Origin: Escherichia coli
GTDB lineage: Bacteria; Pseudomonadota; Gammaproteobacteria; Enterobacterales; Enterobacteriaceae
DNA: 64,000 bases
Assembly: GCF_011045215.1 (NCBI RefSeq)
Contig: NZ_CP049201.1
Direction: 5' to 3' (one strand)
Shown here: in pieces, positions 923-55,800 of the stretch
Numbering within the stretch: position 1 is the stretch's first letter
Layout of the letters: each line of letters starts with the position of its first letter
Notes under the pieces: generated by a model
The model's database searches: none
What the model was told of the DNA's origin: nothing
What the model saw: the letters and a program-made list of their open reading frames with translations, nothing else
Position numbers and translations under genes: made by a program

Positions 923-938
923 ACGTCGCATCAGGAGC

Positions 939-1122
<184 letters not shown>

Positions 1123-1202
1123 AAACCGCGGTGTAAATAACGACAAAAATAAAATTGGCCGCTTCGGTCAGGGCCAACTATTGCCTGAAAAAGGGTAACG
1201 AT

Positions 1203-2573: not shown

Positions 2574-2627
2574 TGTCGGATCTTCCCTTACCCCATTGCG
2601 GGTAAGGGGCTAATAACAGGAACAACG

Positions 2628-4022: not shown

Positions 4023-4023
4023 T

Positions 4024-5502: not shown

Positions 5503-5530
5503 GTTGCTGTTTTCGGTTCCGACAACGGTT

Positions 5531-5718
5531 GCCGGATGCGGCGTAAAACGCCTTATCCATCCTACGGTTCTGTGCTCGGGACCTGTAGGCCTGATAAGAC
5601 GCGTCAGCGTCGCATCAGGCACTGAATGCCGGATGCGGCGTGAACGCCTTATCCGGCCTACGGTTCTGTGCTCGGGTCTTGTAGGCCTGATAAGACGCGT
5701 CAGCGTCGCATCAGGCAA
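5531..5718. repeat. REP/BIME cluster
   Basis: Tandem REP palindromes (GCCGGATGCGGCGT... / GCCTGATAAGACGCGTCAGCGTCGCATCAGGC); coordinates approximate. Confidence 0.7.
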
Positions 5719-7058: not shown

Positions 7059-8275
7059 AGGTCGGCTTCTTTTTACTGAAATTTCCGTTGTCGTCAGAAA
7101 CCTTCGTCCTCAATCAAATTACCGCGTTTATTGATATGGGATTTGAGGTGGAGATTGTCGCGCTGCAAAAAGGCGACACACAAAACACCCACGCGGCATG
7201 GACGAAATACAACCTTGCCGCCAGAACCCGTTGGTTACAGGACGAACCTACGGGCAAAGTGGCGAAGCTGCGCCACCGCGCCAGCCAGACTTTACGCGGC
7301 ATTCATCGTAAAAATACCTGGCAGGCGCTCAACCTCAAACGCTATGGTGCCGAGTCGCGGAATCTGATTTTGTCTGCCATTTGCGGTCAGGTCGCAACAC
7401 CATTTCATGCCGATGTCTTTATCGCTCATTTTGGCCCTGCGGGGGTAACCGCAGCAAAACTACGCGAACTGGGTGTCATTCGCGGCAAAATTGCCACTAT
7501 TTTTCACGGCATTGATATTTCCAGTCGGGAAGTGCTCAACCATTACACTCCCGAATATCAACAACTGTTTCGACGTGGCGACCTGATGCTACCGATAAGC
7601 GATCTGTGGGCCGGAAGGCTGCAAAAAATGGGCTGCCCGAGGGAAAAAATCGCCGTATCGCGCATGGGCGTAGATATGACGCGCTTTAGCCCGCGTCCCG
7701 TGAAAGCGCCCGCAACACCGCTGGAGATTATTTCCGTCGCACGCTTAACCGAGAAAAAAGGCCTGCATGTGGCGATTGAAGCCTGCCGTCAGTTGAAAGA
7801 GCAGGGCGTGGCATTTCGCTATCGCATCCTCGGCATTGGCCCGTGGGAAAGACGCCTGCGCACCCTCATCGAACAATATCAACTGGAAGATGTGGTGGAG
7901 ATGCCGGGCTTTAAACCGAGCCATGAAGTGAAAGCGATGCTCGACAACGCGGATGTTTTCTTGTTGCCATCGGTAACGGGTGCGGATGGCGATATGGAAG
8001 GTATTCCGGTGGCGCTAATGGAAGCGATGGCGGTCGGTATTCCGGTGGTTTCTACTCTGCATAGCGGAATACCGGAACTGGTGGAGGCCGATAAATCCGG
8101 CTGGCTGGTGCCTGAGAATGATGCTCGCGCACTGGCGCAACGACTGGCGGCGTTTAGCCAACTGGACACCGACGAACTGGCTCCGGTTATCAAACGTGCT
8201 CGCGAAAAAGTCGAACACGATTTTAACCAGCAGGTGATTAACCGAGAACTCGCCAGCTTGTTGCAGGCTTTATAG
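7055..8275 (+). CDS. wcaL: Colanic acid glycosyltransferase WcaL (GT4 family), 406 aa
   Basis: ORF track; 4-bp overlap with wcaK; GT4-type motif region. Confidence 0.88.
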
Positions 8276-8285
8276 AGGAGAACGT

Positions 8286-9680
8286 ATGCCATTTAAAAAA
8301 CTCTCCCGACGCACCTTCCTGACGGCAAGCTCCGCGCTTGCCTTCCTCCATACCCCTTTCGCTCGCGCACTTCCCGCCCGACAAAGCGTTAACATTAACG
8401 ACTACAACCCACACGACTGGATCGCCTCATTTAAACAAGCCTTCGGCGAAGGGCAAACGGTCGTCGTGCCTGCCGGATTGGTTTGCGACAATATCAACAC
8501 CGGCATCTTCATTCCTCCTGGCAAAACGTTACACATCCTTGGAAGCCTGCGCGGCAACGGCAGAGGGCGATTTGTCTTACAGGACGGTAGCCAGGTGACA
8601 GGGGAGGAGGGCGGCAGTATGCATAACATCACCCTGGATGTGCGTGGCTCTGACTGCACCATCAAAGGGCTGGCGATGAGCGGCTTTGGCCCGGTAACGC
8701 AGATTTATATCGGCGGCAAAAACAAACGGGTCATGCGCAACCTGACCATCGATAACCTCACTGTCAGCCACGCTAATTACGCCATCTTACGCCAGGGATT
8801 TCATAACCAGATAATCGGTGCCAACATCACCAATTGTAAGTTCAGCGACTTACAGGGCGATGCCATTGAATGGAACGTGGCGATTAACGACAGTGATATT
8901 TTGATATCTGACCATGTCATCGAGCGCATCAACTGTACCAACGGCAAAATCAACTGGGGCATTGGCATAGGCCTTGCGGGAAGCACTTACGATAATAATT
9001 ACCCGGAAGATCAGGCAGTGAAAAACTTTGTCGTGGCGAATATCACGGGATCGGATTGTCGGCAGTTGATCCATGTTGAAAATGGTAAACATTTTGTTAT
9101 TCGTAATATCAAAGCCCGCAATATCACGCCGGATTTCAGTAAGAAAGCAGGTATTGATAACGCCACGGTCGCTATTTACGGTTGTGATAATTTCGTGATT
9201 GATAATATTGAAATGATTAATAGCGCCGGGATGTTAATCGGCTATGGGGTAATTAAAGGCAAATATCTCTCGATACCGCAAAATTTCCGAGTGAATAATA
9301 TTCAACTGGATAATACCCACCTTGCTTACAAATTGCGCGGTATCCAAATCTCCGCCGGGAATGCTGTCTCCTTTGTGGCGCTGACTAACATTGAGATGAA
9401 GCGTGCGTCGCTGGAGTTACACAACAAACCGCAACATCTTTTTATGCGTAATATCAATGTGATGCAGGAATCCTCTGTTGGACCCGCATTGAGCATGAAC
9501 TTCGACATGCGCAAAGACGTTCGCGGCGTCTTTATGGCGAAAAAAGAAACACTGCTGTCTCTTGCAAATGTTCATGCGGTGAATGAAAGAGGGCAAAGCT
9601 CCGTCGATATCGACAGGATTAATCACCATATTGTTAATATGGAAAAGATTAACTTTAGATTGCCAGAACGGAGGGAGTAG
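8286..9680 (+). CDS. wcaM: Colanic acid biosynthesis protein WcaM, 464 aa
   Basis: ORF track; signal-peptide-like N-terminus; last gene of wca cluster. Confidence 0.88.
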
Positions 9681-9837
9681 ATTTGCGACCATTCATAAAC
9701 TTACTGGATATAATGTTCTAAAAGATTATAATCCTCACACTAACTGTTAAAGCTGGGGCTGGGCAGCATTGACTACTCAGGGAAGGTACTCATCTTTATC
9801 TTGTGTTTCTTACGTAACAACCAGACTAAAGTGATTT

Positions 9838-10833
9838 ATGAACGATAACGTTTTGCTCATAGGAGCTTCCGGATTCGTAGGAACCCGACTACTTGAAACG
9901 GCAATTGCTGACTTTAATATCAAGAACCTGGACAAACAGCAGAGCCACTTTTATCCAGAAATCACACAGATTGGCGATGTTCGTGATCAACAGGCACTCG
10001 ACCAGGCGTTAGCCGGTTTTGACACTGTTGTGCTACTGGCAGCGGAACACCGCGATGACGTCAGCCCTACTTCTCTCTATTATGATGTCAATGTTCAGGG
10101 TACCCGCAATGTGCTGGCGGCCATGGAAAAAAATGGCGTTAAAAATATCATCTTTACCAGTTCCGTTGCTGTTTATGGTTTGAACAAACACAACCCTGAC
10201 GAAAACCATCCACACGACCCTTTCAACCACTACGGCAAAAGTAAGTGGCAGGCGGAGGAAGTGCTGCGTGAATGGTATAACAAAGCACCAACAGAACGTT
10301 CATTAACTATCATCCGTCCTACCGTTATCTTCGGTGAACGCAACCGCGGTAACGTCTATAACTTGCTGAAACAGATCGCTGGCGGCAAGTTTATGATGGT
10401 GGGAGCAGGGACTAACTATAAGTCCATGGCTTATGTTGGAAACATTGTTGAGTTTATCAAGTACAAACTGAAGAATGTTGCCGCAGGTTATGAGGTTTAT
10501 AACTACGTTGATAAGCCAGACCTGAACATGAACCAGTTGGTTGCTGAAGTTGAACAAAGCCTGAACAAAAAGATCCCTTCTATGCACTTGCCTTACCCAC
10601 TAGGAATGCTGGGTGGATATTGCTTTGATATCCTGAGCAAAATTACGGGCAAAAAATACGCTGTCAGCTCAGTGCGCGTGAAAAAATTCTGCGCAACAAC
10701 ACAGTTTGACGCAACGAAAGTGCATTCTTCAGGTTTTGTGGCACCGTATACGCTGTCGCAAGGTCTGGATCGAACACTGCAGTATGAATTCGTTCATGCC
10801 AAAAAAGACGACATAACGTTTGTTTCTGAGTAA
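9838..10833 (+). CDS. gne: NAD-dependent epimerase, UDP-N-acetylglucosamine 4-epimerase-like (Gne), 331 aa
   Basis: ORF track; N-terminal GASGFVG Rossmann motif and YGKSK catalytic motif; position between wcaM and galF as in strains carrying gne. Confidence 0.8.
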   Translation: MNDNVLLIGASGFVGTRLLETAIADFNIKNLDKQQSHFYPEITQIGDVRDQQALDQALAGFDTVVLLAAEHRDDVSPTSLYYDVNVQGTRNVLAAMEKNGVKNIIFTSSVAVYGLNKHNPDENHPHDPFNHYGKSKWQAEEVLREWYNKAPTERSLTIIRPTVIFGERNRGNVYNLLKQIAGGKFMMVGAGTNYKSMAYVGNIVEFIKYKLKNVAAGYEVYNYVDKPDLNMNQLVAEVEQSLNKKIPSMHLPYPLGMLGGYCFDILSKITGKKYAVSSVRVKKFCATTQFDATKVHSSGFVAPYTLSQGLDRTLQYEFVHAKKDDITFVSE

Positions 10834-11075
10834 TGCAGACGAGTCAGAGAAAAAAGGACCAGGTTGGACTACGATTATTCGGAAAGAGGTACTGATTAAA
10901 TTATCAGTATGCGGAATTCCGAGTAATCCGAGTAACCCAGATGCTGATGGTGTGTAGTGTTATTCTAAGGTTTAAGCAAAGTTATGCGGAACTAAGCTTT
11001 GGTATATAGCCATAACGTTTGGCTAACCTATGGCAATAATTTACGCACTATCAGCCACTTAGAGGTAGGAAAAGA

Positions 11076-11969
11076 ATGACGAATTTAAAAGCAGTTATAC
11101 CGGTAGCAGGTCTTGGGATGCATATGTTGCCTGCCACTAAGGCGATTCCCAAAGAGATGCTACCGATCGTCGACAAGCCAATGATTCAGTACATTGTTGA
11201 CGAGATTGTGGCTGCAGGGATCAAAGAAATCCTCCTGGTAACTCACGCGTCCAAGAACGCAGTCGAAAACCACTTCGACACCTCTTATGAATTAGAATCT
11301 CTCCTTGAACAGCGCGTGAAGCGTCAACTGCTGGCGGAAGTACAATCTATCTGTCCGCCGGGCGTGACCATTATGAACGTGCGTCAGGGTGAACCTTTAG
11401 GTTTAGGCCATTCCATTTTGTGTGCACGACCCGCCATTGGTGACAACCCATTTGTCGTGGTGCTGCCAGACGTTGTGATCGACGACGCCAGTGCCGACCC
11501 GCTGCGCTACAACCTTGCTGCCATGATTGCGCGTTTCAATGAAACGGGCCGTAGCCAGGTGCTGGCAAAACGTATGCCGGGTGACCTTTCTGAATACTCC
11601 GTTATTCAGACCAAAGAGCCGCTGGATCGTGAAGGCAAAGTCAGCCGCATTGTTGAATTTATCGAAAAACCGGATCAGCCGCAGACGCTGGACTCAGACA
11701 TCATGGCCGTTGGTCGCTATGTGCTTTCTGCCGATATTTGGCCGGAACTTGAACGCACTCAACCTGGTGCATGGGGACGTATCCAACTGACTGATGCCAT
11801 TGCTGAACTGGCGAAGAAACAGTCCGTTGATGCCATGCTGATGACTGGTGACAGCTACGACTGCGGTAAAAAAATGGGCTATATGCAGGCGTTTGTGAAG
11901 TATGGACTGCGCAACCTGAAAGAAGGGGCGAAGTTCCGTAAAGGGATTGAGAAGCTGTTAAGCGAATAA
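11076..11969 (+). CDS. galF: UTP-glucose-1-phosphate uridylyltransferase subunit GalF, 297 aa
   Basis: ORF track; conserved GalU/GalF N-terminus; conserved 5' flank of O-antigen locus. Confidence 0.92.
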
Positions 11970-12227
11970 TGAAAATCTGACCGGATGTAACGGTTGATAA
12001 GAAAATTATAACGGCAGTGAAGATTCGTGGTGAAAGTAATTTGTTGCGAATATTCCTGCCGTTGTTTTATATAAACAATCAGAATAACAACGAGTTAGCA
12101 ATAGGATTTTAGTCAAAGTTTTCCAGGATTTTCCTTGTTTCCAGAGCGGATTGGTAAGACAATTAGCGTTTGAATTTTTCGAGTTTAGCGCGAGTAGGTA
12201 ACGCTAGTCACATCGTAGACATGTAAG

Positions 12228-12268
12228 CAGTGCTCTGGTAGCTGTAAAGCCAGGGGCGGTAGCATTGT
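12228..12268 (+). promoter_or_regulatory. JUMPstart element with ops (RfaH-dependent antitermination) site; ops GGCGGTAGCAT at about 12255..12265
   Basis: CAGTGCTCTGGTAGCTGTAAAGCCAGGGGCGGTAGCAT matches the conserved JUMPstart upstream of O-antigen clusters; ops differs from K-12 GGCGGTAGCGT at one position. Confidence 0.7.
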
Positions 12269-12618
12269 TCTTGATATTTTTAAGTATAAAAATGACACAT
12301 AAAAATAAAATAATTAGTTATCGGTATGTTTTTAATTGTGTTATTATTGAAAAATATCACCATTAATTATTTAATGCGATAAAGGCCAAATAAATCACTC
12401 ATTTATTTCTACATAGGATAGGGGACTATCAGATGGGAATTAAATAAAAATCCAAGTGCTAAATATTTCAATCTTAAATTCCATTGTAAAAAGTTTAAGG
12501 GATTTTATTCTAAAAAAGAATTGGATGAATTGAAAGTTATTTTGAGCTTAATTTATTAAACTTGAAGTTTTTTTACTGAGTTTTTCTGAAAAATAATTTA
12601 TTGTTAATGGAGCCATAT

Positions 12619-13638
12619 ATGTCAATTTTAGTTACCGGAGGTTGTGGTTATATAGGTGTCCACACAATTTATACGTTAATTTCTCAGGGCTACGATGTTA
12701 TTGTACTGGATAACCTGACTAACTCATCAATAGAGTCATTAGAGAGAGTCAAGTTAATGACAAATCATAACATACCCTTTTATAAAGGAGATGTGGGGAA
12801 TAAAAAAATATTGGTAGACATATTCAATGAGCATCAAATAAAAGCGGTTATGCATTTTGCAGGCTTGAAATCAGTAAGTGAATCTATAAAAAAACCGATT
12901 GAATATTATTCAAGTAACGTAATGCAAACGTTATCACTAATATCTACAATGATAGAGTATAACGTAAAAAGCTTTATCTTTAGTTCATCTGCTACTGTAT
13001 ATGGTAAACCAAAGTTATGCCCTATAAATGAAACTCATCCTATTGGCAAAACTACAAATCCTTATGGAACATCAAAATTAATGATGGAGTTAATGTTGTC
13101 TGATTTGTGTAATGCATATGATGATTTTAATGTGACAATTTTACGATATTTTAATCCAATTGGTGCTCATGAATCAGGTAATATTGGTGAACATCCAAAC
13201 GGTATACCAAATAACCTATTTCCTTATCTTACAAAAGTTGCTATTGGAGAGTATCCTTATTTAAAAGTGTATGGTTGTGATTACCCAACGTCTGATGGTT
13301 CTGGTGTTCGAGATTATATTCATGTAGTTGATCTTGCTGAAGCACATGTAAAAGCTTTATCAAAAAATTCAGAGTCGACTGGGCTAAAAATTTATAATTT
13401 AGGAACCGGAAAAGGATATTCTGTACTCGAAGTTATAGAAGCTTTTGAAAAGATAACTGGAATCAAAATACCATATAAAATTATGCCTCGAAGGGATGGT
13501 GATGTTGCGGAGTGTTGGTCTGATAGCACGAAGGCAAATGATAAATTAGAATGGAAAGCAAACAGAGAATTATATGACATGATTAGAGACGCTTGGAATT
13601 GGCAATCAAAAAATCCTCATGGTTATGATAATACATGA
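12619..13638 (+). CDS. UDP-glucose/UDP-hexose 4-epimerase (GalE family), 339 aa, low GC
   Basis: ORF 12601..13638; start at ATG 12619 preceded by GGAG; GGCGYIG Rossmann motif, YGKPK-like catalytic region. Confidence 0.8.
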   Translation: MSILVTGGCGYIGVHTIYTLISQGYDVIVLDNLTNSSIESLERVKLMTNHNIPFYKGDVGNKKILVDIFNEHQIKAVMHFAGLKSVSESIKKPIEYYSSNVMQTLSLISTMIEYNVKSFIFSSSATVYGKPKLCPINETHPIGKTTNPYGTSKLMMELMLSDLCNAYDDFNVTILRYFNPIGAHESGNIGEHPNGIPNNLFPYLTKVAIGEYPYLKVYGCDYPTSDGSGVRDYIHVVDLAEAHVKALSKNSESTGLKIYNLGTGKGYSVLEVIEAFEKITGIKIPYKIMPRRDGDVAECWSDSTKANDKLEWKANRELYDMIRDAWNWQSKNPHGYDNT

Positions 13639-14003
13639 TGTTATAGTATATTCAATGAATATAATTTATGCTTTGGAGTAAAAGTTGTCACAGCGTTTTC
13701 TTGCAGAACTAAGATGTTTTTAGCATAATTAGACACAGAATTAAAAATATTATCAGGCCGTATCAGTACATATCTTCAGTATGCACTATCATATATTAAT
13801 ATGAGAAAATATTTGTATTTAAAATATGATGTTCTAATAAGATTAAATTAACTGCCTAGGATATTAAAAGCTAATTTGGACTAGCTTTATTAGATAAGTA
13901 AATCTAACAAAATATTACTATGTCCGATATGTTATACCACTATTAATGACATCATGTAATATTATTTTAATAAACTATTTTTTGATCGCAGAGGTAATTA
14001 TAA

Positions 14004-14399
14004 ATGAGAAGAGTTATCACCTTTGGAACATTCGACGTGTTTCATATTGGACATGTTAATATATTAAAAAGGGCGAAGGAGTTTGGTGATTTGCTGATTG
14101 TGGGAGTTTCATCCGATTCATTAAATTTTTCTAAAAAACAGCGTTATCCAATCTATAGCCAGGAGGAGCGCATTGAGATTATATCCTCACTTAAGTTTGT
14201 AGATCATGTCTTTATAGAAGAATCTTTAGATCTTAAGTTAGAATATATTAGAAAGTATGAGGCAAATTTACTTGTAATGGGAGATGATTGGAAGGGCAGA
14301 TTTGACTGGGTTAAAGATGAGTGCGAAGTTATTTATTTGCCCAGAACACCATCGATATCAACTACCGAGATTATAGAAATTGTCCGGAGAATAAAATGA
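14004..14399 (+). CDS. Glycerol-3-phosphate cytidylyltransferase (TagD-like), 131 aa
   Basis: ORF track; TFGTFDVFHIGH nucleotidyltransferase motif (HxGH) and RTPSISTTEII C-terminal motif. Confidence 0.8.
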   Translation: MRRVITFGTFDVFHIGHVNILKRAKEFGDLLIVGVSSDSLNFSKKQRYPIYSQEERIEIISSLKFVDHVFIEESLDLKLEYIRKYEANLLVMGDDWKGRFDWVKDECEVIYLPRTPSISTTEIIEIVRRIK

Positions 14400-14471
14400 T
14401 AACTCATTTGTTGATAGTGATTTATATTGTATAATTAATATTATGTAAAATGATATATATGGCAAATACAA

Positions 14472-15773
14472 ATGACGTCATGTAATAACTTTAAAAAGTA
14501 TAAAACATTATCTTTATTATCCGTGTGTTTATCCTCTATTCGTGTCTTTTTGGGGCCAATAACATTACTTGTACTAGCCAAAAACCTTTCCACTGAGGAA
14601 CTAGGATTTTATTATGCTTTTTTTTCGTTAACAGCAATGGCACAGTTGCTGGAAGTTGGGATGTCTAGCGTATTGAAACAGTATTATAGCCATTCTTATG
14701 CTATTCATGATATCAGTGAAAAAAATATAAAAATATCGAACTATTTTAACTTTTCAATCTATTGGTATTTAATATTATCAATACTTTTTTTTATATTGGG
14801 AGGGGTGGTGTCATATGTTATGTTTAATGATTATAACGGAATAGTTAACTGGAAATTACCATGGTTTTTTTTGCTTTTTGTTTCATGTACTAATTTATTA
14901 GTATTGCCCTTAAATGCAATGCTTGATGGAACACAAAGGCAACAATTATTGATGAAAGCTAATATTGTTAGTCAGTTAATGATAGCGATATCATTATGGC
15001 TGACAATTTATTTAGGCTTGGGGCTATATTCTCTTGGTCTATCACAATTGGTAGGAATATTATTTTTTTTACTGTCAGTTTTTATATTTAATAAATGTAG
15101 ATTCCAGTTCATAGAAATACATAAAAAAAACTTTTCATTTAAAACAGTATTTAATGAGTTGTGGCCGTTATTGAAAAAAACTAGTATCGTATGGTTTCTT
15201 GGTTATTTCTACTGGAACGGTTTTAATATAATATCATTTAAATATCTTGGTGCAGAGATCGCAGGCTTCGTTGGTATGTCGATGTCAATTATGCGAGCGG
15301 GACAGAATATAGCAATATCTATTTTGAATTCTCAGATGACATTGTATGCAAGCAATATTGCGATGGGAAAGATTGATGAAGCAAGAAGAGTATTTAAGAA
15401 ATATTTTATCATTTCATTTTTGTTATTAATTTCTGGTTACTCAATATTTTATATTTTCTATTATGTTAAGCCTGATTTTTTCTTGTTTAAGAAGGTCCTG
15501 CCCTTAGAACAAATGATTTATGTGTCAATATTTTTTGCCTTTACATTTATAATATCAGGAACTGAAACTTTTATTCGTTGTTTTAAAGTGGAGAAGTTCG
15601 TTATCACTCAGACAATCAATTCAATTTTAACTCCATTCTTATTTGTTTTGGGGCTTAACTTGCATTATCAATATTTTTGTTTACCAATAATATCTGTACT
15701 GATAGTGTCAATCTTAACGTTATATATAAGTCGACGTTTTTACACGGGGTATTCGAATGCAAAAAATACTTAA
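14472..15773 (+). CDS. wzx: O-antigen flippase Wzx (polysaccharide transporter family), 433 aa
   Basis: ORF track; very hydrophobic, multiple predicted TM segments, AT-rich codon usage. Confidence 0.6.
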   Translation: MTSCNNFKKYKTLSLLSVCLSSIRVFLGPITLLVLAKNLSTEELGFYYAFFSLTAMAQLLEVGMSSVLKQYYSHSYAIHDISEKNIKISNYFNFSIYWYLILSILFFILGGVVSYVMFNDYNGIVNWKLPWFFLLFVSCTNLLVLPLNAMLDGTQRQQLLMKANIVSQLMIAISLWLTIYLGLGLYSLGLSQLVGILFFLLSVFIFNKCRFQFIEIHKKNFSFKTVFNELWPLLKKTSIVWFLGYFYWNGFNIISFKYLGAEIAGFVGMSMSIMRAGQNIAISILNSQMTLYASNIAMGKIDEARRVFKKYFIISFLLLISGYSIFYIFYYVKPDFFLFKKVLPLEQMIYVSIFFAFTFIISGTETFIRCFKVEKFVITQTINSILTPFLFVLGLNLHYQYFCLPIISVLIVSILTLYISRRFYTGYSNAKNT

Positions 15774-16929
15774 GTATATAATGAAATTAATGATGTGGAG
15801 TATTTATCCTATCGGTTTTTTAATTAAAAGGGATAAAAGCATTTGGCTTTTCGGTAGTTATAGCGGTTTTACTGATAATAGTCGATATTTATTTGAATCT
15901 ACCACTAAAAAGAATGATGTAAGATGCATTTGGATATCTGATGATATAAAGCTGATAAAAAAAATTAGATGTAAAGGTTATGAGGCATATTACAAATATA
16001 GTGTTAAAGGTATATATTTTTGTTATATTGCAAAGGTGTATATATATTCAAATTATGTATCAACGATAAACTTTTATACATCTGCAGGCGCGGTATTGGT
16101 AAATTTATGGCATGGGACGCCACTTAAAAAAATCGAATATGATATATCTAAATCTCCTTTATTTAATTATTTTAAAGGAGCCTCATTTATAATTAAAATA
16201 TTGATGCCTGAGAAACATAAAAAGTGTAATTTCATTCTTGCTCCGAGTCAATTTGTTTATGATTATTCATTTAAAAGTGCATTTAGGGTGTATGATATGC
16301 AATATGCCATTATTGCTGATCCACCTAGGATATCTAATCTCTTATCAAGAGCCTATCACAAAGTGAATAATGATAAGAATTCAATTAAAAAAACAAAGAA
16401 AACATTTTTATATGCACCAACATGGAGAGATGATCGCTCGGATTTTATAAGTATTTCAGGTTTAAATTTCAACGAAATTAATAATTTTCTATTAAAAAAT
16501 AACGCGTATTTACAAATCAGGTTGCATCCTAATACAACTTTAAATATTGATATGAGTGAAATGGAAAATATTCACATTGTTGATAATTATGAACCAGCTG
16601 AAGATAGTATGCTAAATTCTGATTTTCTCATAACTGATTACTCTTCAATATATTTTGACTACCTCTATCTTAATAGACCTATAATCTTCTTCCCATTTGA
16701 TCTTGAAAAATATACCGCATCGCGTGATTTTTATTTGAGTTATAACGAAGCAACTCCAGGGGTTAAAGTATATAATCAAGGTGAATTAATCCAGGAGATG
16801 GATAACCTATTGAAGGGCATTGACAATTGGATGAACTATCGAAAGGAGCTTGCTGAAAAATTCTGTTCGCTCGAAAGACGTAACGATGATTATATCATAA
16901 AAAAAATTAAAAAAGGTGTATCTGAATGA
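15757..16929 (+). CDS. CDP-glycerol glycerophosphotransferase (TagB/TagF family), 390 aa
   Basis: ORF track; YAPTWRDD motif typical of TagF-type enzymes; adjacent to TagD-like gene. Confidence 0.7.
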   Translation: MQKILKYIMKLMMWSIYPIGFLIKRDKSIWLFGSYSGFTDNSRYLFESTTKKNDVRCIWISDDIKLIKKIRCKGYEAYYKYSVKGIYFCYIAKVYIYSNYVSTINFYTSAGAVLVNLWHGTPLKKIEYDISKSPLFNYFKGASFIIKILMPEKHKKCNFILAPSQFVYDYSFKSAFRVYDMQYAIIADPPRISNLLSRAYHKVNNDKNSIKKTKKTFLYAPTWRDDRSDFISISGLNFNEINNFLLKNNAYLQIRLHPNTTLNIDMSEMENIHIVDNYEPAEDSMLNSDFLITDYSSIYFDYLYLNRPIIFFPFDLEKYTASRDFYLSYNEATPGVKVYNQGELIQEMDNLLKGIDNWMNYRKELAEKFCSLERRNDDYIIKKIKKGVSE

Positions 16930-17732
16930 ATCTTGGTAAAATTATAAATTATATAGAGTCTAAGGTTATTAGTATAAATTTTGATTTCAATCATTTAGCT
17001 GGCTATTTAAGTCGTGATGAGCGAGATAAAATAACCTTAAAACATCTAAGCAGTATTATTGATAGAAGAAAAAAACATCCATCTGTTTCTGCTATATACA
17101 GAGTGAAAAATGGAGCTCAATTTATTGAACTATCTATTCTTTCAATAGCTGCATTTTGTCGTGAAATAATTATTGTAGACAATAATTCAACAGATGATAC
17201 TTTACTAATAGTAGAACGTCTTAAAAGCGAACTTCAGGAAATATGTGAAATTAAAATCTATCAGTATACTAGTCAGGTCGCTTTGGCGGGTAAGAATTAT
17301 AATGATGAAATCAGAAAATATCCTGAGCGGTCATTGGCAAAATATTATAACTATGCTTTTTCATTGGCAACATCGGAATTCTTAATGAAGTGTGATGCTC
17401 ATTATATATTCACACCTGCGGGTATAGATAGTATACAACGAAAATTAATTTCAAATCATAAGTCAGTTGATGTTATATGTTATCGTGGCACCGAAGTATT
17501 TGGAGCCATGTTAGATTGTGAACCCTATCTAATACGGAAAAATAGTTTTAAATATTACGACACTCAATATTTTGAACGTTTGACATTAAACAAGAAGAGA
17601 AGTTTTATTCAAAAAATTAAAGGGAGAATTTCATCACCTTGCTTTATACATGTTAAACGTTTGAGTTATGTTAAGTCAGTTCATCTATGTGAAATAAACC
17701 CTGTGGAGTATATGTATAAAAATGATAATTAA
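16926..17732 (+). CDS. Putative glycosyltransferase (GT-A fold-like), 268 aa
   Basis: ORF track; IIIVDNNSTDDT-like segment resembling GT2 DXD region; assignment weak. Confidence 0.45.
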   Translation: MNLGKIINYIESKVISINFDFNHLAGYLSRDERDKITLKHLSSIIDRRKKHPSVSAIYRVKNGAQFIELSILSIAAFCREIIIVDNNSTDDTLLIVERLKSELQEICEIKIYQYTSQVALAGKNYNDEIRKYPERSLAKYYNYAFSLATSEFLMKCDAHYIFTPAGIDSIQRKLISNHKSVDVICYRGTEVFGAMLDCEPYLIRKNSFKYYDTQYFERLTLNKKRSFIQKIKGRISSPCFIHVKRLSYVKSVHLCEINPVEYMYKNDN

Positions 17733-18951
17733 ATTACATAATATTTGCGTAACTGGGAAGAATGATAATCATGACGGGTCTTTTCGCCTACAAATATACT
17801 ATTTCCTATGTATTTTAATATCTATTCTATTTTTCAGTGCATACCCTTTGGTATCGTTACCTCTTATAGCTCTTTCAAGTCCATTTGTTAATAACTATGC
17901 AAGATGGACTATGTCACTATTAATGATTTTTTATTTTATTTTATTATACTCATCTATTACGCCTTTTTCAGACATAGCAGAGTATATGCTTATCTATAGA
18001 GGAGTAACCGATGTTGATATATTTAGTTTTGGTAGGTTTGGTGGTGGAATCGAGATCTTCATATTAGCTCTCATGCGCTTGGTGTATTTTATATCCGATG
18101 GCAATGAATATCTTTTTTTATTTTTTTGCTTTACTATTATTCAAATATTTCTTTTTGTATTTTGTTATCGTGTTAATCGTCGTTTATCATGTTTATATTT
18201 TTTAGTATTTAATCTTTCATATGCTTATTATTCTTTTAATGCATATTTTTTACGAAGCATGTTATCCGCGGTTTTTTTAATTAATGCCTTTTTGTTTATT
18301 TCTAAAAAAAAGTATGTGTATTATTTTTTTGCAATTATATCGCATTTGTCATCCGTCCTATATATAGGAGTATGGGAATATTTAAGGGCAAGAAATAAAA
18401 AATTAAAAATATGGGTTGCTAGTATGGCAACTGTAACTATTATATGTTGTTTTATTTTTTTGCGAGATAGGATTGAATTTTATTTATTTAAAAGCTCTGG
18501 AAATTCGATGGGGTATGTACAAGTTGTAACCATTGCTTTTAATTATATTTTGTGTTTGTTGTTATTATTCTTTTCAAATGCAAGAAAAGAATTGTCAACT
18601 CAAAGAATAATATTGTTTTTGACTTTTTTCTTTATCTTGGCCTTGGTAACTTATAAAATACCACAAAATTTTGGGATAAGAATCTCTATTTTGCTTTACG
18701 CACTATCACCGTTTTTCTTGTATCCACTTCTTACCTCCTGCAATGTAACAATATTAAATAAGATCAAATCGTTGTCTCTTTATATGATTGTTAACTGTTG
18801 CTTTCTCTTTGTTGTGTTATATAAGGGCGATGATATTTCAAATCACATGCGTTCAAATCCATTAGATACTAGTTTTATTGATTTATTAATAAAGGACATA
18901 GATTATTTTGTTAAAGGATATTATCCAGTAATATATTCTAGAGACGAATAA
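17722..18951 (+). CDS. wzy: O-antigen polymerase Wzy, 409 aa
   Basis: ORF track; extremely hydrophobic polytopic protein with rare codons inside O-antigen cluster. Confidence 0.55.
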   Translation: MIIKLHNICVTGKNDNHDGSFRLQIYYFLCILISILFFSAYPLVSLPLIALSSPFVNNYARWTMSLLMIFYFILLYSSITPFSDIAEYMLIYRGVTDVDIFSFGRFGGGIEIFILALMRLVYFISDGNEYLFLFFCFTIIQIFLFVFCYRVNRRLSCLYFLVFNLSYAYYSFNAYFLRSMLSAVFLINAFLFISKKKYVYYFFAIISHLSSVLYIGVWEYLRARNKKLKIWVASMATVTIICCFIFLRDRIEFYLFKSSGNSMGYVQVVTIAFNYILCLLLLFFSNARKELSTQRIILFLTFFFILALVTYKIPQNFGIRISILLYALSPFFLYPLLTSCNVTILNKIKSLSLYMIVNCCFLFVVLYKGDDISNHMRSNPLDTSFIDLLIKDIDYFVKGYYPVIYSRDE

Positions 18952-19238
18952 GGGACATTGTTTAGATGTGCAAGGTGGAAATGTATCAAAGAAAATTGTA
19001 GTTACTACAGTAACAGTTACTTTGTAAAGTATATTTCGGTAAAACCTGCAATAACCAAGGGCGCTAAACTCCCTAACAACTCCGCTAATGGAATTAGAAT
19101 TAGAGAGTGACGAGTTTAAATATGAGAGTTTAGGGTAATAGAACAAATTTTTAAGTTTATAGAGTAAGAACAGATTAAGTTAAGTTTGCTTATTTTATAA
19201 TAAGCTCTTTCTTAAACCATATATAGTATTATCTACAA

Positions 19239-19961
19239 TTGAGTGATATCAAATTGAATATTGAGATCGGTTTATCAGCGCTGAATTCAGGAATTTATAA
19301 AATTAAATTTCGTAATGATTATAATTATCTTATTATTCATCAGATTACTGATGAATGTGATTACTCTGATTATGTGGCATCTTTCCCTGAAAATGTTAGA
19401 TACATATCTTCATATGAGTCTGGGTTGTCCAAAAGTCGAAATATGGCCATTGAAAATGCAAAATACGATTATCTTTGGTTAATGGATGATGATATGGAAA
19501 TAGATGATGCGGCTTGGGATTATCTGACGAAATTTATTAGTGATTATAAAAATAGTCCTTTGCTGGTTGTTTCTCATTCATTGGCAAAAAAGTATAATAA
19601 TGAAAAAGAGAGGATTAAAAGATTGAATCCTATAACTGCTGCGGGAATTTGTTCTGTAGATATGATATTAAAAATTTCAGCACTGGACGGTATTAGATTT
19701 AACTCAGATTTTGGGTTAGGAGCTAAATATCCTTCCGGTGAGGAATATATTTTTGCATGTGATTTGATGAGAGCTGGAAAAAAAATATATAAATCTAATA
19801 AAATTTGCTCGAATCATCCTGACACGACTTCTAGTGATAAAACATATCCAAATAAAGACGCTTTTAGTACGAAGAAGAAAATGTTTAAAGTCGCAAATGG
19901 GAAATACTTAGGGAGCATTTTGTATATTGCTTTTGTTGTCAAAAAATTACTATATAAATAA
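19239..19961 (+). CDS. Glycosyltransferase family 2-like, about 240 aa (start uncertain; ORF begins at TTG)
   Basis: ORF track; SKSRNMAIENA...LWLMDDDMEID resembles GT2 DXD region. Confidence 0.5.
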   Translation: MSDIKLNIEIGLSALNSGIYKIKFRNDYNYLIIHQITDECDYSDYVASFPENVRYISSYESGLSKSRNMAIENAKYDYLWLMDDDMEIDDAAWDYLTKFISDYKNSPLLVVSHSLAKKYNNEKERIKRLNPITAAGICSVDMILKISALDGIRFNSDFGLGAKYPSGEEYIFACDLMRAGKKIYKSNKICSNHPDTTSSDKTYPNKDAFSTKKKMFKVANGKYLGSILYIAFVVKKLLYK

Positions 19962-20005
19962 TAATTTACATAATTTTATTTTTATATAATCTATTTATTG
20001 TCTAG

Positions 20006-21052
20006 ATGCCTATGAAAAAAGTATATATTTTTATTGATGATATATCCCGTTCCGGTGGCACAGAACGAGTTGCGACATTTCTCTCTAATCAAATGTTTTT
20101 ATCCGGATTTTCAGTCACACTAATATCATTAGCATTAGAAGGAGGGAATACATACTATCCGCTGCAACCCGGAGTCAAGTTAGAGGTTTTAAGTGAATCA
20201 ACATTATACGAATTGTTTCTTTTTTTAAGAAAAAATTCATGTGATGTGTTGATTTCTGTTTCCATGGGTAGTTTATCGTTTAAGCTTGCATGTTTACATT
20301 TTCTATTACGATTAAAATCTCGTCTTATTTTAAGTGAGCATGTGGCTTTTGAATCCTCATCAAAGTTCATTCGTTCTCTAAAATGGTTAAGCTATCAATT
20401 CGCTGATGATCTTGTATTATTGACAAAGCATGATTATAAATTGCTTAAGTCAAATGTTAGGGCTCATACTCACGTTATCAATAATGCTAGTGGTTTCGAA
20501 CAATTATCTGAATCTGTTCTTATTCAAAAGCAAAAGATAGTATTAGCAGTGGGACGTTTAACTTATCAGAAGGGGTTTGATAGGTTAATTCGTATTTGGG
20601 CTTCCATATCGGACAATCACGGTTGGGTTTTACGGATCGTAGGGGATGGAGAATTGCGTTCAGAACTACAAAAAATGATTGTTGACCTGAATGTTACACA
20701 TAATGTCCAACTTATACCAGCAACAAAATGTATAGAACAAGAATATACTAATGCAGCTATATTAGCTATGACTTCTCGCTATGAAGGACTACCATTGGTT
20801 CTTATAGAGGCTAAATCTTTTGGATTAGCAGCAGTCGCTTTTGATTGTAAAACAGGTCCTGCTGAAATTATTCATCACAAAAAAGATGGGTTCTTGATTA
20901 CTGAAGATAATGAACCTGAATTTTCATATCGTCTTCAGTCTTTAATGATCGATGATGTTTATCGAAACAAAATACAAAGTATGGCCTTAAGAAATGCTAA
21001 TGATTATTCTGTTGAAAAAATAAGTCGGCAGTGGTTGGAGTTAATATCATGA
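20006..21052 (+). CDS. Glycosyltransferase family 4 (group 1), 348 aa
   Basis: ORF track; VGRLTYQKGFD and EGLPLVLIEAKSFGLAAVAFD motifs (GT4 EX7E region). Confidence 0.75.
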   Translation: MPMKKVYIFIDDISRSGGTERVATFLSNQMFLSGFSVTLISLALEGGNTYYPLQPGVKLEVLSESTLYELFLFLRKNSCDVLISVSMGSLSFKLACLHFLLRLKSRLILSEHVAFESSSKFIRSLKWLSYQFADDLVLLTKHDYKLLKSNVRAHTHVINNASGFEQLSESVLIQKQKIVLAVGRLTYQKGFDRLIRIWASISDNHGWVLRIVGDGELRSELQKMIVDLNVTHNVQLIPATKCIEQEYTNAAILAMTSRYEGLPLVLIEAKSFGLAAVAFDCKTGPAEIIHHKKDGFLITEDNEPEFSYRLQSLMIDDVYRNKIQSMALRNANDYSVEKISRQWLELIS

Positions 21053-21837
21053 GTAGTTATGAAACAGTATCTATAATCATGCCTACGTTTAATGCTGCAT
21101 CTTATATTTCGTATAGCATCATTTCTGTAATTGAACAATCATATAATGATTGGCATTTATATATAATAGATGATGGTTCAACTGACAATACCGCACATGA
21201 AATATCTAATTTTACCGATCTGCGAATAACATATGTAATGCTTCCTATCAATAGTGGAGTTGCAAATGCTAGAAATATAGGTATTAAAATGGCAAAAGGG
21301 AAATTTATTGCGTTTCTTGATAGTGATGACATTTGGGAAAAAGAAAAATTATCCTTGCAAATCCCTTTACTCGAAAAAGGATATGATGTAGTTTGTTCAA
21401 ATTATGCCATTTTTAAAAATGAACCAAAAAAAATAATCGGTTCTCGAACTGCACCACAACAGATCACCTATTCGCGTTTGTTACGCGGTAATTGTATCGG
21501 CAATTTAACGGGGATTTATAACCGAGAACGACTAGGTAAATGCTTACAGGAAGAATGTGGACATGAAGACTATCTAATGTGGTTACAGTTGGTAAAGCTT
21601 TCTGGTAGCGCTTATTGCATACAGAAAAATTTAGCCCGGTATCGAGTTACGGAACATTCAGTATCATCAAATAAATTAAAAGCAGCATTTTGGCAATGGA
21701 ATATATATCGTAAAAAACTCAAGCTTAATATTTTGAGCAGTATATATTACTGGTGTAATTATTCTTTTTACGCATTTATGCACATGTTAAAAATGAAGTT
21801 TCATGTGAATAAAAGTAATCTAATATATAAGAGATAA
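21049..21837 (+). CDS. Glycosyltransferase family 2, 262 aa
   Basis: ORF 21031..21837; start at ATG 21049 after GGAG; VSIIMPTFN and FLDSDD motifs. Confidence 0.8.
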   Translation: MSSYETVSIIMPTFNAASYISYSIISVIEQSYNDWHLYIIDDGSTDNTAHEISNFTDLRITYVMLPINSGVANARNIGIKMAKGKFIAFLDSDDIWEKEKLSLQIPLLEKGYDVVCSNYAIFKNEPKKIIGSRTAPQQITYSRLLRGNCIGNLTGIYNRERLGKCLQEECGHEDYLMWLQLVKLSGSAYCIQKNLARYRVTEHSVSSNKLKAAFWQWNIYRKKLKLNILSSIYYWCNYSFYAFMHMLKMKFHVNKSNLIYKR

Positions 21838-22085
21838 CAAGATATATAGTGTTAATTGTCACCTTCATTATATAAAGTAGATTAATTTGCGATGGTGACT
21901 TTTACATTAACATCGAAGTAAATATTGAGATAAATATTATACAATATTAATAATATGTTATGAATTTAAATTTTATTTTGAATTGCCCAATAATATTTTT
22001 TTAAATTATTACTTTAAGTAGTCATTTTAGGTTAATATATTACCGTTAAGCAAACCATGCAGTATATTACTGACAGGAGTAAACA

Positions 22086-23492
22086 ATGTCAAAGCAACAG
22101 ATTGGCGTCGTCGGTATGGCAGTGATGGGGCGCAACCTTGCGCTCAACATCGAAAGCCGTGGTTATACCGTCTCTATTTTCAACCGTTCCCGTGAGAAGA
22201 CGGAAGAAGTGATTGCCGAAAATCCAGGCAAGAAATTGGTTCCTTACTTTACGGTAAAAGAGTTTGTTGAATCTCTGGAAACGCCTCGTCGCATCCTGTT
22301 AATGGTGAAAGCAGGTGCAGGCACGGATGCTGCTATTGATTCTCTCAAGCCATACCTCGATAAAGGTGACATCATCATTGATGGTGGTAACACCTTCTTC
22401 CAGGACACCATTCGTCGTAACCGTGAGCTGTCTGCAGAAGGTTTTAACTTTATCGGTACTGGTGTTTCCGGTGGTGAAGAAGGTGCACTGAAAGGACCTT
22501 CCATCATGCCTGGTGGCCAGAAAGAAGCCTATGAACTGGTTGCACCGATCCTGACCAAAATCGCCGCAGTGGCTGAAGATGGGGAGCCATGTGTTACCTA
22601 TATTGGTGCCGATGGTGCTGGTCACTATGTGAAGATGGTTCACAACGGTATTGAATACGGAGATATGCAACTGATTGCTGAAGCCTATTCTCTGCTAAAA
22701 GGTGGCCTGAACCTCACCAACGAAGAACTGGCGCAGACCTTTACCGAGTGGAATAACGGTGAACTGAGCAGCTACCTGATCGACATCACCAAAGATATCT
22801 TCACCAAAAAAGATGAAGACGGTAACTACCTGGTTGATGTGATTCTGGATGAAGCTGCAAACAAAGGTACGGGTAAATGGACCAGCCAGAGTGCGCTGGA
22901 TCTCGGCGAACCGCTGTCGCTGATTACCGAGTCTGTGTTTGCACGTTATATCTCTTCTCTGAAAGATCAGCGCGTTGCCGCATCTAAAGTTCTCTCTGGC
23001 CCGCAAGCGCAGCCAGCAGGCGACAAAGGTGAGTTCATCGAAAAAGTTCGCCGTGCGTTGTATCTGGGCAAAATCGTTTCTTACGCCCAGGGCTTCTCTC
23101 AGCTGCGTGCGGCGTCTGAAGAGTACAACTGGGATCTGAACTACGGCGAAATCGCGAAGATTTTCCGTGCTGGCTGCATCATCCGTGCGCAGTTCCTGCA
23201 GAAAATCACCGATGCTTATACCGAAAATCCGCAGATCGCTAACTTGCTGTTGGCTCCATACTTCAAGCAAATTGCCGATGACTATCAGCAGGCGCTGCGT
23301 GATGTTGTTGCTTATGCAGTACAGAACGGTATCCCGGTTCCCACCTTCGCCGCTGCGGTTGCCTATTATGACAGCTACCGTGCCGCTGTTCTGCCTGCGA
23401 ACCTGATCCAGGCACAGCGTGACTATTTCGGTGCACATACTTATAAGCGCATTGATAAAGAAGGTGTGTTCCATACTGAATGGCTGGATTAA
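22086..23492 (+). CDS. gnd: 6-phosphogluconate dehydrogenase, decarboxylating, 468 aa
   Basis: ORF track; [22 protein letters not shown]-terminus; conserved 3' flank of O-antigen locus. Confidence 0.95.
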
Positions 23493-25049: not shown

Positions 25050-26030
25050 ATGATGAGAGTAGAAAATAATAATGTTTCTGGGCAAAACCATGACCCGGAA
25101 CAGATTGATTTGATTGATTTACTGGTGCAGTTGTGGCGTGGCAAGATGACAATTATCATCTCTGTCATTGTGGCTATTGCCCTGGCTATAGGGTATCTGG
25201 CCGTTGCCAAAGAAAAGTGGACTTCCACAGCTATCGTTACTCAACCTGATGTGGGGCAAATCGCTGGTTATAACAATGCCATAAATGTGATTTATGGTTC
25301 GGCAGCGCCGAAAGTGTCTGAGATCCAGTCGATGTTAATTGGTCGTTTCAGCACGACATTTTCTGCATTAGCAGAAACGCTGGATAATCAGGAAGAACCT
25401 GAAAAACTGACCATTGAGCCTACCGTTAAAAATCAGTCATTACCTTTAGCGGTTTCTTATGTGGGTGAAACACCTGAAGGTGCGCAGAAACAGCTGGCGA
25501 AGTATATCCAGCAAGTTGACGACCAGGTAAATGAAGAACTGGAACAAGACCTGAAAGACAACATCGCGCTGCAAATGAAAAACTTGCAGGATTCTCTGAA
25601 GACCCAGGAAGTGGTTGCGCAGGAGCAGAAAGATCTGCGTATCCGTCAGATTCAGGAAGCGTTGCAGTATGCGAATCAGGCGCAGGTGACAAAGCCGCAG
25701 ATTCAGCAGACACAGGACGTAACCCAAGATACTATGTTCCTTTTGGGGAGCGAAGCGCTGGAGTCGATGATTAAGCACGAGGCGACTCGTCCGTTGGTGT
25801 TCTCATCAAACTACTATCAGACTCGTCAAAACCTGCTGGATATCGACAATCTTGACGTTGATAAACTTGATATTCATGCTTACCGCTATGTAATGAAACC
25901 GACGTTACCTATTCGTCGCGATAGCCCGAAAAAGGCAATTACCTTGATTCTGGCGGTGCTGCTGGGCGGCATGGTTGGCGCGGGGATTGTGCTGGGGCGT
26001 AACGCTCTGCGTAATTACAACGCGAAGTAA
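25050..26030 (+). CDS. wzzB: O-antigen chain length determinant WzzB (Cld), about 326 aa
   Basis: ORF 24996..26030; start placed at the MMRVENNN methionines (25050 or 25053); two TM ends with coiled-coil middle. Confidence 0.88.
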   Translation: MMRVENNNVSGQNHDPEQIDLIDLLVQLWRGKMTIIISVIVAIALAIGYLAVAKEKWTSTAIVTQPDVGQIAGYNNAINVIYGSAAPKVSEIQSMLIGRFSTTFSALAETLDNQEEPEKLTIEPTVKNQSLPLAVSYVGETPEGAQKQLAKYIQQVDDQVNEELEQDLKDNIALQMKNLQDSLKTQEVVAQEQKDLRIRQIQEALQYANQAQVTKPQIQQTQDVTQDTMFLLGSEALESMIKHEATRPLVFSSNYYQTRQNLLDIDNLDVDKLDIHAYRYVMKPTLPIRRDSPKKAITLILAVLLGGMVGAGIVLGRNALRNYNAK

Positions 26031-54140: not shown

Positions 54141-54297
54141 AATTTGCTCCTTATCGGTGGTTAAGATTTACTGGTGTAATAAATGAAAAAGCCACGTCTC
54201 CCGGAGAAGACGCGGCCTGACAGATGAAATGAATGACGTTTATTGTCTGAGAAGCCCTTAACTGGCGAGCTGAGTATTAAGCTGTGTTCCGGCATCA

Positions 54298-54489
54298 CTA
54301 GCGCAACTGACCTTCAGCATTACGGATAACCAGCCGGGAATATGTTCCCTGGTCATCTTCAGTAAACACATTGCGGTAAGCTGTTTTGACGACAACAGCC
54401 TGTTCGCGTGAGAAAGGGCCTTCGGGCAATAAACGTGATGTACAACCCGGCATATCTGTTGCTCCCTGAAAGTAAAAGGCCCCGGTCAT
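54298..54489 (-). CDS. Hypothetical small protein, 63 aa (doubtful)
   Basis: ORF track only; lies between the Ag43 remnant and the yafZ-like gene; no recognisable motif. Confidence 0.2.
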
Positions 54490-54523
54490 GATGACCGGGG
54501 CCTGAAGGAGAGTGACCTGATTA

Positions 54524-54595
54524 TCAGAAAGTCACATTCAGCGTGGCCTGACCGTTATAACCTTCAGCGCTGCTGCCGCTGACGCTGTGGGCATA
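54524..54595 (-). pseudogene. flu: 3'-terminal remnant of an autotransporter gene, consistent with antigen 43 (flu)
   Basis: Minus strand encodes [23 protein letters not shown]-stop, a typical autotransporter beta-barrel C-terminus ending in Phe; upstream reading frame is unrelated. Confidence 0.6.
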
Positions 54596-55785: not shown

Positions 55786-55800
55786 ACATGTATTCCCGGT

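Follow-up and report, generated by a model that had tools for sequence, protein, structure and literature searches.

Gene content of the galF–gnd interval

The window, a 64,000-nt stretch of E. coli DNA that we analysed as a whole, carries nine intact genes between galF and gnd (12619–21837), all co-oriented on the + strand and with no internal stops in an open-reading-frame check. In order, they encode a GalE-type epimerase, a TagD-like protein, Wzx, a TagB/TagF-like protein, a GT2-like glycosyltransferase, Wzy, and three further glycosyltransferases of GT-A, GT4 and GT2 type, as listed here with the flanking features.

9838–10833, + strand: gnu, Und-PP-GlcNAc 4-epimerase, 5′ of galF and outside 12619–21837 (same coordinates in the LR-03 annotation; SDR epimerase family matches)
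11076–11969, + strand: galF, 5′ flank of the O-antigen locus
12255–12262, + strand: ops element GGCGGTAG in a JUMPStart-like sequence, 5′ of the first cluster gene (exact match)
12619–13638, + strand: GalE-family UDP-hexose 4-epimerase, probably Gne-type (TIGR01179; GalE alignment)
14004–14399, + strand: TagD/TarD-like protein, putative CTP:glycerol-3-phosphate cytidylyltransferase (PF01467; 1COZ and 2B7L matches)
14472–15773, + strand: wzx, O81 O-unit flippase ("O81 family" names; primer matches)
15757–16929 (annotated start 15781), + strand: single-domain TagB/TagF-family CDP-glycerol glycerophosphotransferase (PF04464; 3L7I alignment)
16926–17732, + strand: glycosyltransferase, divergent GT2/GT-A (PF00535, 1.1e-6; annotated "glycosyltransferase")
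17722–18951, + strand: wzy, O81 O-antigen polymerase (PF14897 EpsG; exact named sequence)
19254–19961, + strand: glycosyltransferase, GT-A fold (PF00535, 2.3e-8; annotated "glycosyltransferase family A protein")
20012–21052, + strand: GT4 (retaining) glycosyltransferase (PglH, 2.3e-42; PglJ, 1e-27; annotation)
21049–21837, + strand: GT2 (inverting) glycosyltransferase, TuaG-like (NF047683, 8.3e-63, under cut-off; annotation)
22086–23492, + strand: gnd, 3′ flank of the O-antigen locus
25053–26030, + strand: wzzB, regulator of O-antigen chain length and partner of Wzy (annotation)

The GC content across positions 12000–22000 was 0.27–0.35, compared to about 0.5 in galF (0.51) and gnd. The annotation of strain LR-03 contains the same genes and is collinear with the window over 5530–44233, where the coordinates of the two coincide. 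The ops element is an RfaH-dependent antitermination signal; its 8-mer has two matches in the window and by itself is not above chance, and both its position and its surroundings (cagtgctctggtagctgtaaagccaggggcggtagc) are typical. All features of the low-GC cluster described in the initial annotation were thus found at their positions, and domain or structure-sequence searches backed each of its four glycosyltransferases as well as Wzx, Wzy and the GalE-like epimerase.

The cluster is that of serogroup O81

The O81 reference cluster has been sequenced in surveys of all serogroups, and the galF–gnd location, the gene content and the gene order of the window all agree with it. The same 10 kb was present at 99.6–100% identity and 100% length in ten of 5426 complete E. 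coli genomes, in which wzx and wzy are annotated as "O81 family". The Wzy protein, which matched PF14897 (EpsG) at 1.7e-10, was identical to the "O81 family O-antigen polymerase" (UniProt A0A0A8J5E2). Domain searches with Wzx returned nothing beyond weak generic matches (NF041503, 7e-13; PF01943, 1e-3), and the protein carries the name "O81 family O-antigen flippase" in the ten genomes and in its protein cluster. In silico PCR placed the O81-specific wzx primers from the literature, without mismatch, at 15256–15273 (+) and 15484–15503 (−), giving a 248-bp amplicon of the published size. Relative to LR-03, the only differences were one of the 433 Wzx residues (G112V, also the difference from the common allele) and one synonymous change in tagD. 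The serogroup, which the initial annotation could not name from sequence alone, is O81, and wzx and wzy, genes cited there as able to contradict a glycerol-phosphate antigen, both point to it.

These results indicate, with a probability that we place at about 0.93, that the stretch is the E. coli O81 O-antigen cluster, Wzx/Wzy-dependent and making a repeat unit that contains glycerol phosphate. The cluster has already been described, and the locus is an ordinary and known one. The main value of the assignment lies in correct annotation, which allows the strain to be typed from its sequence; the O81 name ties the strain to known biology, and it offers little beyond that.

The Wzx substitution bears on whether an intact cluster could nevertheless be silent or non-functional, leaving the cell rough either through G112V or through a defect in wecA, waaL or rfaH. 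The Val112 allele occurred on a single contig in the protein collection, the common allele being found on many. However, none of the nine genes is disrupted, nor is wzzB, and the JUMPStart/ops element is in place; exchanging a single Gly for Val in a membrane protein is no evidence for lost function. We rate a rough phenotype as very improbable.

A less remote, though still unlikely, alternative is that the same O81 cluster underlies a modified antigen, for instance the side-chain glucosylated form of E. coli HS3-104, a horse isolate whose O-antigen cluster matches O81 (PMC4728585). According to the title of the paper on O81 O-antigen structure and genetics by Zdorovenko et al. 2018 (Biochemistry (Moscow) 83:534, PMID 29738687), HS3-104 differs from O81 by glucosylation of the O antigen. 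Such a modification needs a gtr operon elsewhere in the genome, and gtr operons are usually prophage-borne and lie outside the galF–gnd locus (PMC7685785). Against this reading, no gtr genes were seen in the window, among the annotated features of its collinear part and of the related downstream island.

The O81-type O antigen has been attributed the role of receptor for the LtfB tail fibre of the T5-like phages DT57C and DT571/2 (PMC4728585), and O81 has been found among Shiga-toxin-producing E. coli from cattle (PMC7403468).

A teichoic-acid-type enzyme pair with a predicted role in glycerol phosphate transfer

The TagD-like protein matched PF01467 (3e-23), and its closest solved relatives were B. 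subtilis TagD (1COZ, 7.8e-37) and S. aureus TarD (2B7L, 3.6e-34), both aligned over the full length. The motifs that define a CTP:glycerol-3-phosphate cytidylyltransferase are HxGH, RTxGISTT and Lys44/Lys46 (PMC8262930), and the protein corresponds to this definition. It contains HIGH at residues 14–17 (14043–14054) and RTPSISTT at residues 114–121 (14343–14366), with Ser replacing the Gly of RTxGISTT, and keeps Lys44 and R56, the Lys46 position being aligned to Arg47; the dimer motif RYVDEVI reads KFVDHVF. TIGR01518 was the top NCBIfam model by 55 bits, with a score (133.8 bits) below the equivalog cut-off of 165.4, and because of this the NCBI name is merely "adenylyltransferase/cytidyltransferase family protein". 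We accordingly file the product of 14004–14399 as TagD-like and infer a role in CDP-glycerol synthesis from its sequence relationships.

The TagB/TagF-like protein contains a full-length Glyphos_transf domain (PF04464, 4.3e-58, model positions 12–354, 343/367), with YAPTWRDD encoded at 16411–16434. It aligned to residues 357–717 of S. epidermidis TagF, which form its catalytic domain (3L7I, 1.2e-24). In this alignment, the WHGTPLK His lies opposite the position occupied by Asn in the 3L7J mutant, and the RLHPN His pairs with RMHYL of TagF. Both active-site histidines of TagF, which we take to be His444 and His584 of the S. epidermidis enzyme, are thus matched in the alignment. The scores fell short of the equivalog cut-offs for TarF (130.8/550), TarB (43.4/500) and TarL (74.9/1000), and by these sequence comparisons the protein is a PF04464 family member and no orthologue of any specific teichoic acid enzyme. 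We also considered a TagF-type polymerase and rejected it, since the protein has 382–390 residues, has no large N-terminal domain and aligns solely to 357–717 of the 729-residue TagF. For such a single-domain enzyme, the expected outcome would be one glycerol phosphate per O unit. Translation probably starts at 15757 rather than at the annotated 15781, giving 390 aa and a 17-nt overlap with wzx; the Citrobacter and Pseudocitrobacter orthologues conserve four residues at the start of the long form (Met1, Lys3, Lys6 and Tyr7) but not the annotated Met9. The TagD-like and TagB/TagF-like assignments, initially made from the HxGH and YAPTWRDD motifs, stand in domain and solved-structure sequence searches, with the catalytic residues kept.

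Since both proteins score under the cut-offs, their substrates are deduced from family, best matches and gene pairing rather than from an orthologue call. The sub-threshold scores leave a slim chance, the smallest of those considered here, that the pair handles a phospho-alcohol other than glycerol phosphate, with ribitol phosphate and phosphoethanolamine as examples: PF04464 also holds ribitol-phosphate transferases (hence the TarL match), and some members of the cytidylyltransferase family act on ethanolamine phosphate or choline phosphate. Against this, the two glycerol-3-phosphate cytidylyltransferases that head the solved relatives of the TagD-like protein are well ahead of the ethanolamine enzyme (1e-23), TarI/TarJ-type CDP-ribitol genes are missing from the cluster, and among NCBIfam models the transferase matched TarF best, itself a glycerol-phosphate transferase. 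The O81 polysaccharide, moreover, reportedly contains glycerophosphate. We therefore retain glycerol phosphate as the predicted product of the pair.

The two enzyme families are those of the Gram-positive TagD/TarD and TagB/TagF/TarF proteins, whose catalytic motifs are kept in the O81 proteins and whose chemistry is presumably shared: CTP and glycerol 3-phosphate give CDP-glycerol, from which transfer then releases CMP. They differ in setting, in that the 729-aa TagF polymerase has an N-terminal half that the O81 transferase does not have, and the Gram-positive pathway yields teichoic acid through the TagGH ABC transporter, whereas the O81 enzymes sit in a Wzx/Wzy O-antigen pathway.

Pairs of this kind are already known from O-antigen clusters of Gram-negative bacteria, where they recur. 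Published accounts give O28ab, O37 and O100 (glycerol 1-phosphate), O130, and O33 (glycerol 2-phosphate) as other E. coli O antigens with glycerol phosphate, added to the O unit of a Wzx/Wzy cluster as in O81. These clusters have their own wzx, wzy and glycosyltransferases, and their tagD-like genes share 67–73% DNA identity with the O81 gene. The glycerol 2-phosphate of O33 is made by a different route. We found tagD-like DNA in 287 of the 5426 complete E. coli genomes (~5%), and this frequency, together with that of the O81 cluster itself, fits the initial view of glycerol phosphate as a minority trait in E. coli.

Epimerase, first sugar and predicted pathway

The epimerase scored 443.7 bits against TIGR01179 (cut-off 262.3) and aligned with E. 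coli GalE along the full length of both proteins. Its Cys300 (GDVAECWSD, 13507–13524) occupies the position of E. coli GalE Tyr299 and corresponds to Cys299 of the Y299C mutant chain 1LRK, which outscored wild-type GalE against the cluster protein. A small residue at this position allows N-acetylated substrates, as known from GalE Y299C and human GALE. The Cys thus suggests a Gne-like enzyme, and the original GalE-like label, correct as to family, is refined to a probable Gne type (group 2) that would act on UDP-Glc/Gal as well as UDP-GlcNAc/GalNAc. The best families for the GT4 transferase, PglH and PglJ, are alpha-1,4-GalNAc transferases, both under cut-off. Upstream of galF, gnu marks O units that begin with GalNAc (PMC7685785) and predicts GalNAc as the first O-unit sugar.

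On the observed gene identities, intactness, domains, conserved catalytic residues and O81 assignment, we infer the following order of steps and acceptors. WecA, encoded outside the window, would begin the unit on undecaprenyl phosphate, and Gnu would probably turn the first sugar into GalNAc. The cluster epimerase would supply UDP-Gal and/or UDP-GalNAc, and the four glycosyltransferases would extend the unit at the cytoplasmic face. CDP-glycerol would be formed by the TagD-like enzyme from CTP and sn-glycerol 3-phosphate, and the single-domain transferase would use it as donor to attach one glycerol phosphate per unit, at a hydroxyl group of the lipid-linked O unit. Wzx would then flip the unit, Wzy polymerise it, WzzB set the chain length and WaaL ligate the chain to lipid A-core. 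The predicted Wzx/Wzy-dependent O antigen with glycerol phosphate is supported by these data; its initial description as "substituted with" glycerol phosphate implied more than the sequence can tell, as lateral and main-chain positions look alike at this level, and the glycerol phosphate may sit in the O81 main chain.

Related clusters in other genera

Eight collinear genes (tagD, wzx, tagF-like, GT, wzy, GT, GT4 and GT2) were found between galF and gnd in Citrobacter gillenii (CP151088.1) and Pseudocitrobacter faecalis (CP174503.1), with protein identities to the O81 eight-gene core of 63–86% and 52–84%, respectively. Unlike E. coli O81, neither cluster has the 5′ galE/gne gene. We give even odds to a scenario in which the eight-gene module is an old cross-genus cassette, the antigens of C. 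gillenii and P. faecalis resemble O81, and the 5′ Gne-type epimerase was captured in E. coli O81. If true, three genera would share a phage receptor and a glycerol-phosphate O antigen that cross-reacts; we know of no earlier description of an O81-like antigen with this distribution. In Pseudocitrobacter, a GalE-type gene, 57% identical, is located after gnd.

Assignment of the cluster to serogroup O81

A megablast search with window 12000-22000 against 5,426 complete E. coli genomes recovered the full stretch in ten of them at 99.6-100% identity, and wzx and wzy were annotated as “O81 family” in all ten. In the rest of the genomes among the matches listed, similarity was confined to the opening 270-283 bases of the query, a conserved stretch downstream of galF. 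The exact Wzy protein is on record as “O81 family O-antigen polymerase” (UniProt A0A0A8J5E2), and Wzx was the common O81 allele except for one residue, G112V. Both O81-specific wzx primers from a multiplex PCR for cattle STEC (PMC7403468, supplement) matched exactly, at 15256-15273 (+) and 15484-15503 (−), in convergent orientation and 248 bp apart, the published amplicon size. The initial annotation had left the serogroup unnamed and proposed comparing wzx and wzy with typing databases; the ten genomes, the identical Wzy and the exact primer sites all lead to O81, so that, judged by sequence, the serogroup is O81 and window 12619-21837 is the already known E. coli O81 O-antigen gene cluster. 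The Val112 substitution for the Gly of the common allele lies at wzx codon 112 (window 14806), and the Val112 protein (QIF13137.1 / WP_164475632.1) is on record from a single contig.

Organization of the O81 locus

The window was collinear with E. coli strain LR-03 over 5530-44233, and the LR-03 annotation was therefore directly usable with its coordinates unchanged.

Features of the locus (LR-03 annotation)
ends 9680, wcaM
9838-10833, gnu
11076-11969, galF
12619-13638 (+), galE
14004-14399 (+), cytidylyltransferase (TagD-like)
14472-15773 (+), wzx
15781-16929 (+), CDP-glycerol glycerophosphotransferase (TagF-like)
16926-17732 (+), glycosyltransferase
17722-18951 (+), wzy
19254-19961 (+), GT-A
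20012-21052 (+), GT4
21049-21837 (+), GT2
22086-23492, gnd

The description of a low-GC cluster between galF and gnd held: GC content was 0.27-0.35 in window 12000-22000, compared with roughly 0.5 in galF and gnd on either side, and the low-GC block carried nine intact co-oriented ORFs ending exactly at the proposed limits, 12619 and 21837. Downstream of gnd lie ugd, wzzB and the his operon. The ops octamer GGCGGTAG was found at 12255-12262 inside a JUMPStart-like sequence, 5′ of the first cluster gene, and is separated from the epimerase start codon by about 355 bp of very AT-rich non-coding DNA (12263-12618). Another gap, of 365 bp (13639-14003), separates the epimerase gene from tagD; a mechanical ORF listing returned only short ORFs in this gap and in 18952-19253. 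Scans of the cluster were uninformative, with no excess of promoter-like sites (62; 65 expected) or of terminator-like sites (2; 3.6 expected).

Predicted functions of the cluster proteins

The two teichoic-acid-type assignments of the initial annotation were borne out by domain searches and by sequence searches against solved structures. The TagD-like protein (131 aa) matched Pfam CTP_transf_like (3e-23), and among solved proteins its best hits were full-length alignments to B. subtilis TagD (1COZ, 7.8e-37) and to S. aureus TarD (2B7L, 3.6e-34), followed by ethanolamine-phosphate cytidylyltransferase (2e-23). When compared with the family-defining residues listed for TagD in PMC8262930, the protein had the HxGH motif (HIGH, 14043-14054) and kept Lys44, had Arg in place of Lys46, and read RTPSISTT at the RTxGISTT motif. 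The glycerol-3-phosphate cytidylyltransferase equivalog TIGR01518 topped its NCBIfam list with 133.8 bits, below the cut-off of 165.4, which explains why the NCBI annotation stops at a family name. Since the TagD, TarF, PglH and TuaG equivalog matches were all under cut-off, only family-level names are used here.

The TagF-like protein carried the YAPTWRDD motif at 16411-16434 and matched Pfam Glyphos_transf (4.3e-58) over nearly the whole model. Its alignment with S. epidermidis TagF (729 residues) covered TagF residues 357-717 (1.2e-24) and matched the active-site histidines: the His of WHGTPLK faces the residue mutated to Asn in chain 3L7J, and the His of RLHPN falls opposite RMHYL. The protein had no counterpart of the N-terminal half of TagF and scored far under the TarF, TarB and TarL equivalog cut-offs; it is therefore a single-domain family member and not a polymerase, and one glycerol phosphate added to each unit is the expected outcome. 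The probable start of its gene is 15757, which gives a 17-nt overlap with wzx, because the upstream Met was kept, with several following residues, in the Citrobacter and Pseudocitrobacter orthologues and the annotated Met was not.

Among the remaining proteins, Wzx and Wzy were present as proposed, both annotated “O81 family”; Wzy matched the EpsG family (1.7e-10) and Wzx gave weak generic family matches only. The count of four glycosyltransferases was also right: the two small transferases matched PF00535, and the last two cluster genes encode clear GT4 and GT2 proteins. The epimerase aligned end to end with E. coli GalE, in agreement with the GalE-like label, and had Cys at the position of GalE Tyr299 (GDVAECWSD versus GDLPAYWAD), as does 1LRK, a GalE chain engineered to Y299C, which scored above the wild type. 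In GalE and human GALE, the residue at the Tyr299 position governs the use of UDP-GlcNAc/GalNAc. By analogy, the cluster epimerase is predicted to be active on UDP-GlcNAc/GalNAc as well, which refines the earlier label to a Gne-type enzyme.

Predicted glycerol phosphate in the O81 antigen

A 2018 paper by Zdorovenko et al. is dedicated to O81, and O81 was absent from the main text of Iguchi et al. Our literature search found no open-text paper stating the composition of the O81 polysaccharide. The abstract of Zdorovenko et al. reportedly opens “Glycerophosphate-containing O-specific polysaccharides...”, and an oligosaccharide was reportedly obtained there from the O81 polysaccharide by 48% HF. 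If so, the phosphodiester would lie in the main chain, as part of a teichoic-acid-like repeat, and would not be a lateral substituent. Independently of that paper, the gene content predicts glycerol phosphate, as first proposed; its description as a substituent may have to give way to a main-chain position. Glycerol phosphate as a minority trait was supported by tagD-like DNA in 287 of the 5,426 genomes, compared with ten for the O81 cluster.

Many extraintestinal E. coli strains, including ATCC 25922, LF82 and an O2:K2:H1 strain, carried chromosomal tagD-like genes off the O-antigen locus, with 69-73% identity to that of O81. These genes, probably part of capsule loci, are often labelled 'pantoate--beta-alanine ligase' or 'FAD synthase family protein', an annotation that looks wrong.

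The proposed pathway draws on established Wzx/Wzy assembly (PMC7685785) and TagD and TagF chemistry (PMC8262930). WecA would start the unit on undecaprenyl phosphate, with GalNAc as its predicted first sugar, given that gnu lies upstream of galF. The cluster epimerase would provide 4-epimerised UDP-sugars and the four transferases would extend the unit. CDP-glycerol would come from the TagD-like enzyme, and the TagF-like enzyme would move glycerol phosphate onto the lipid-linked unit at the cytoplasmic face, before Wzx, Wzy, WzzB and WaaL finish assembly. Because the donor would be made by a TagD-type enzyme, linkage through a primary position is expected, and glycerol 2-phosphate of the type in the E. 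coli O33 antigen is not.

Collinear clusters in other genera

Two other genera share the eight-gene segment running from tagD to the final GT2, in the same order and likewise flanked by galF and gnd.

Eight-gene cores
Citrobacter gillenii CP151088.1 (locus L004), 7242-15291
Pseudocitrobacter faecalis CP174503.1 (locus L006), 7279-14819

Their proteins were 63-86% and 52-84% identical, respectively, to those of the O81 cluster. In contrast to E. coli O81, both clusters lacked the 5′ galE/gne epimerase gene, and for this reason the E. coli gene, together with its flanks, may have been inserted later. This cross-genus cluster is the sole mildly new element, and is typical of Enterobacteriaceae O-antigen loci.

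Mosaic structure of the surrounding region

Identity to LR-03 was 99.7% over 5530-44233 only, and divergence downstream of 44233 ruled out that the window is the LR-03 genome. Within the O81 cluster (12000-22000) there were 2 differences in 10 kb, compared with 37 in the 2.3 kb of 9167-11468, which takes in the wcaM end, gnu and the greater part of galF; the final difference is at 11468. The contrast suggests a recombination boundary inside galF. O-antigen clusters travel between lineages via flanking homology, and a boundary in galF is as expected.

Window 1-5717 (cpsB-cpsG-wcaJ-wzxC, colanic acid cluster) was 97.4% identical to LR-03 at a 96-base offset, and the 38.7 kb after it 99.7% identical; the alignment thus shows another mosaic boundary. 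LR-03 carries an ISApl1-mcr-1-pap2-ISApl1 transposon near the island that follows, in a part to which the window does not align. Window 44233-64000, downstream of tmaR, was a CP4-44-like island with yeeS/T/U/V-type genes, a CbtA/CbeA toxin-antitoxin pair, an Ag43/AIDA-type autotransporter and several IS21, IS100 and IS110 copies; the content of this island varies among O81 strains.
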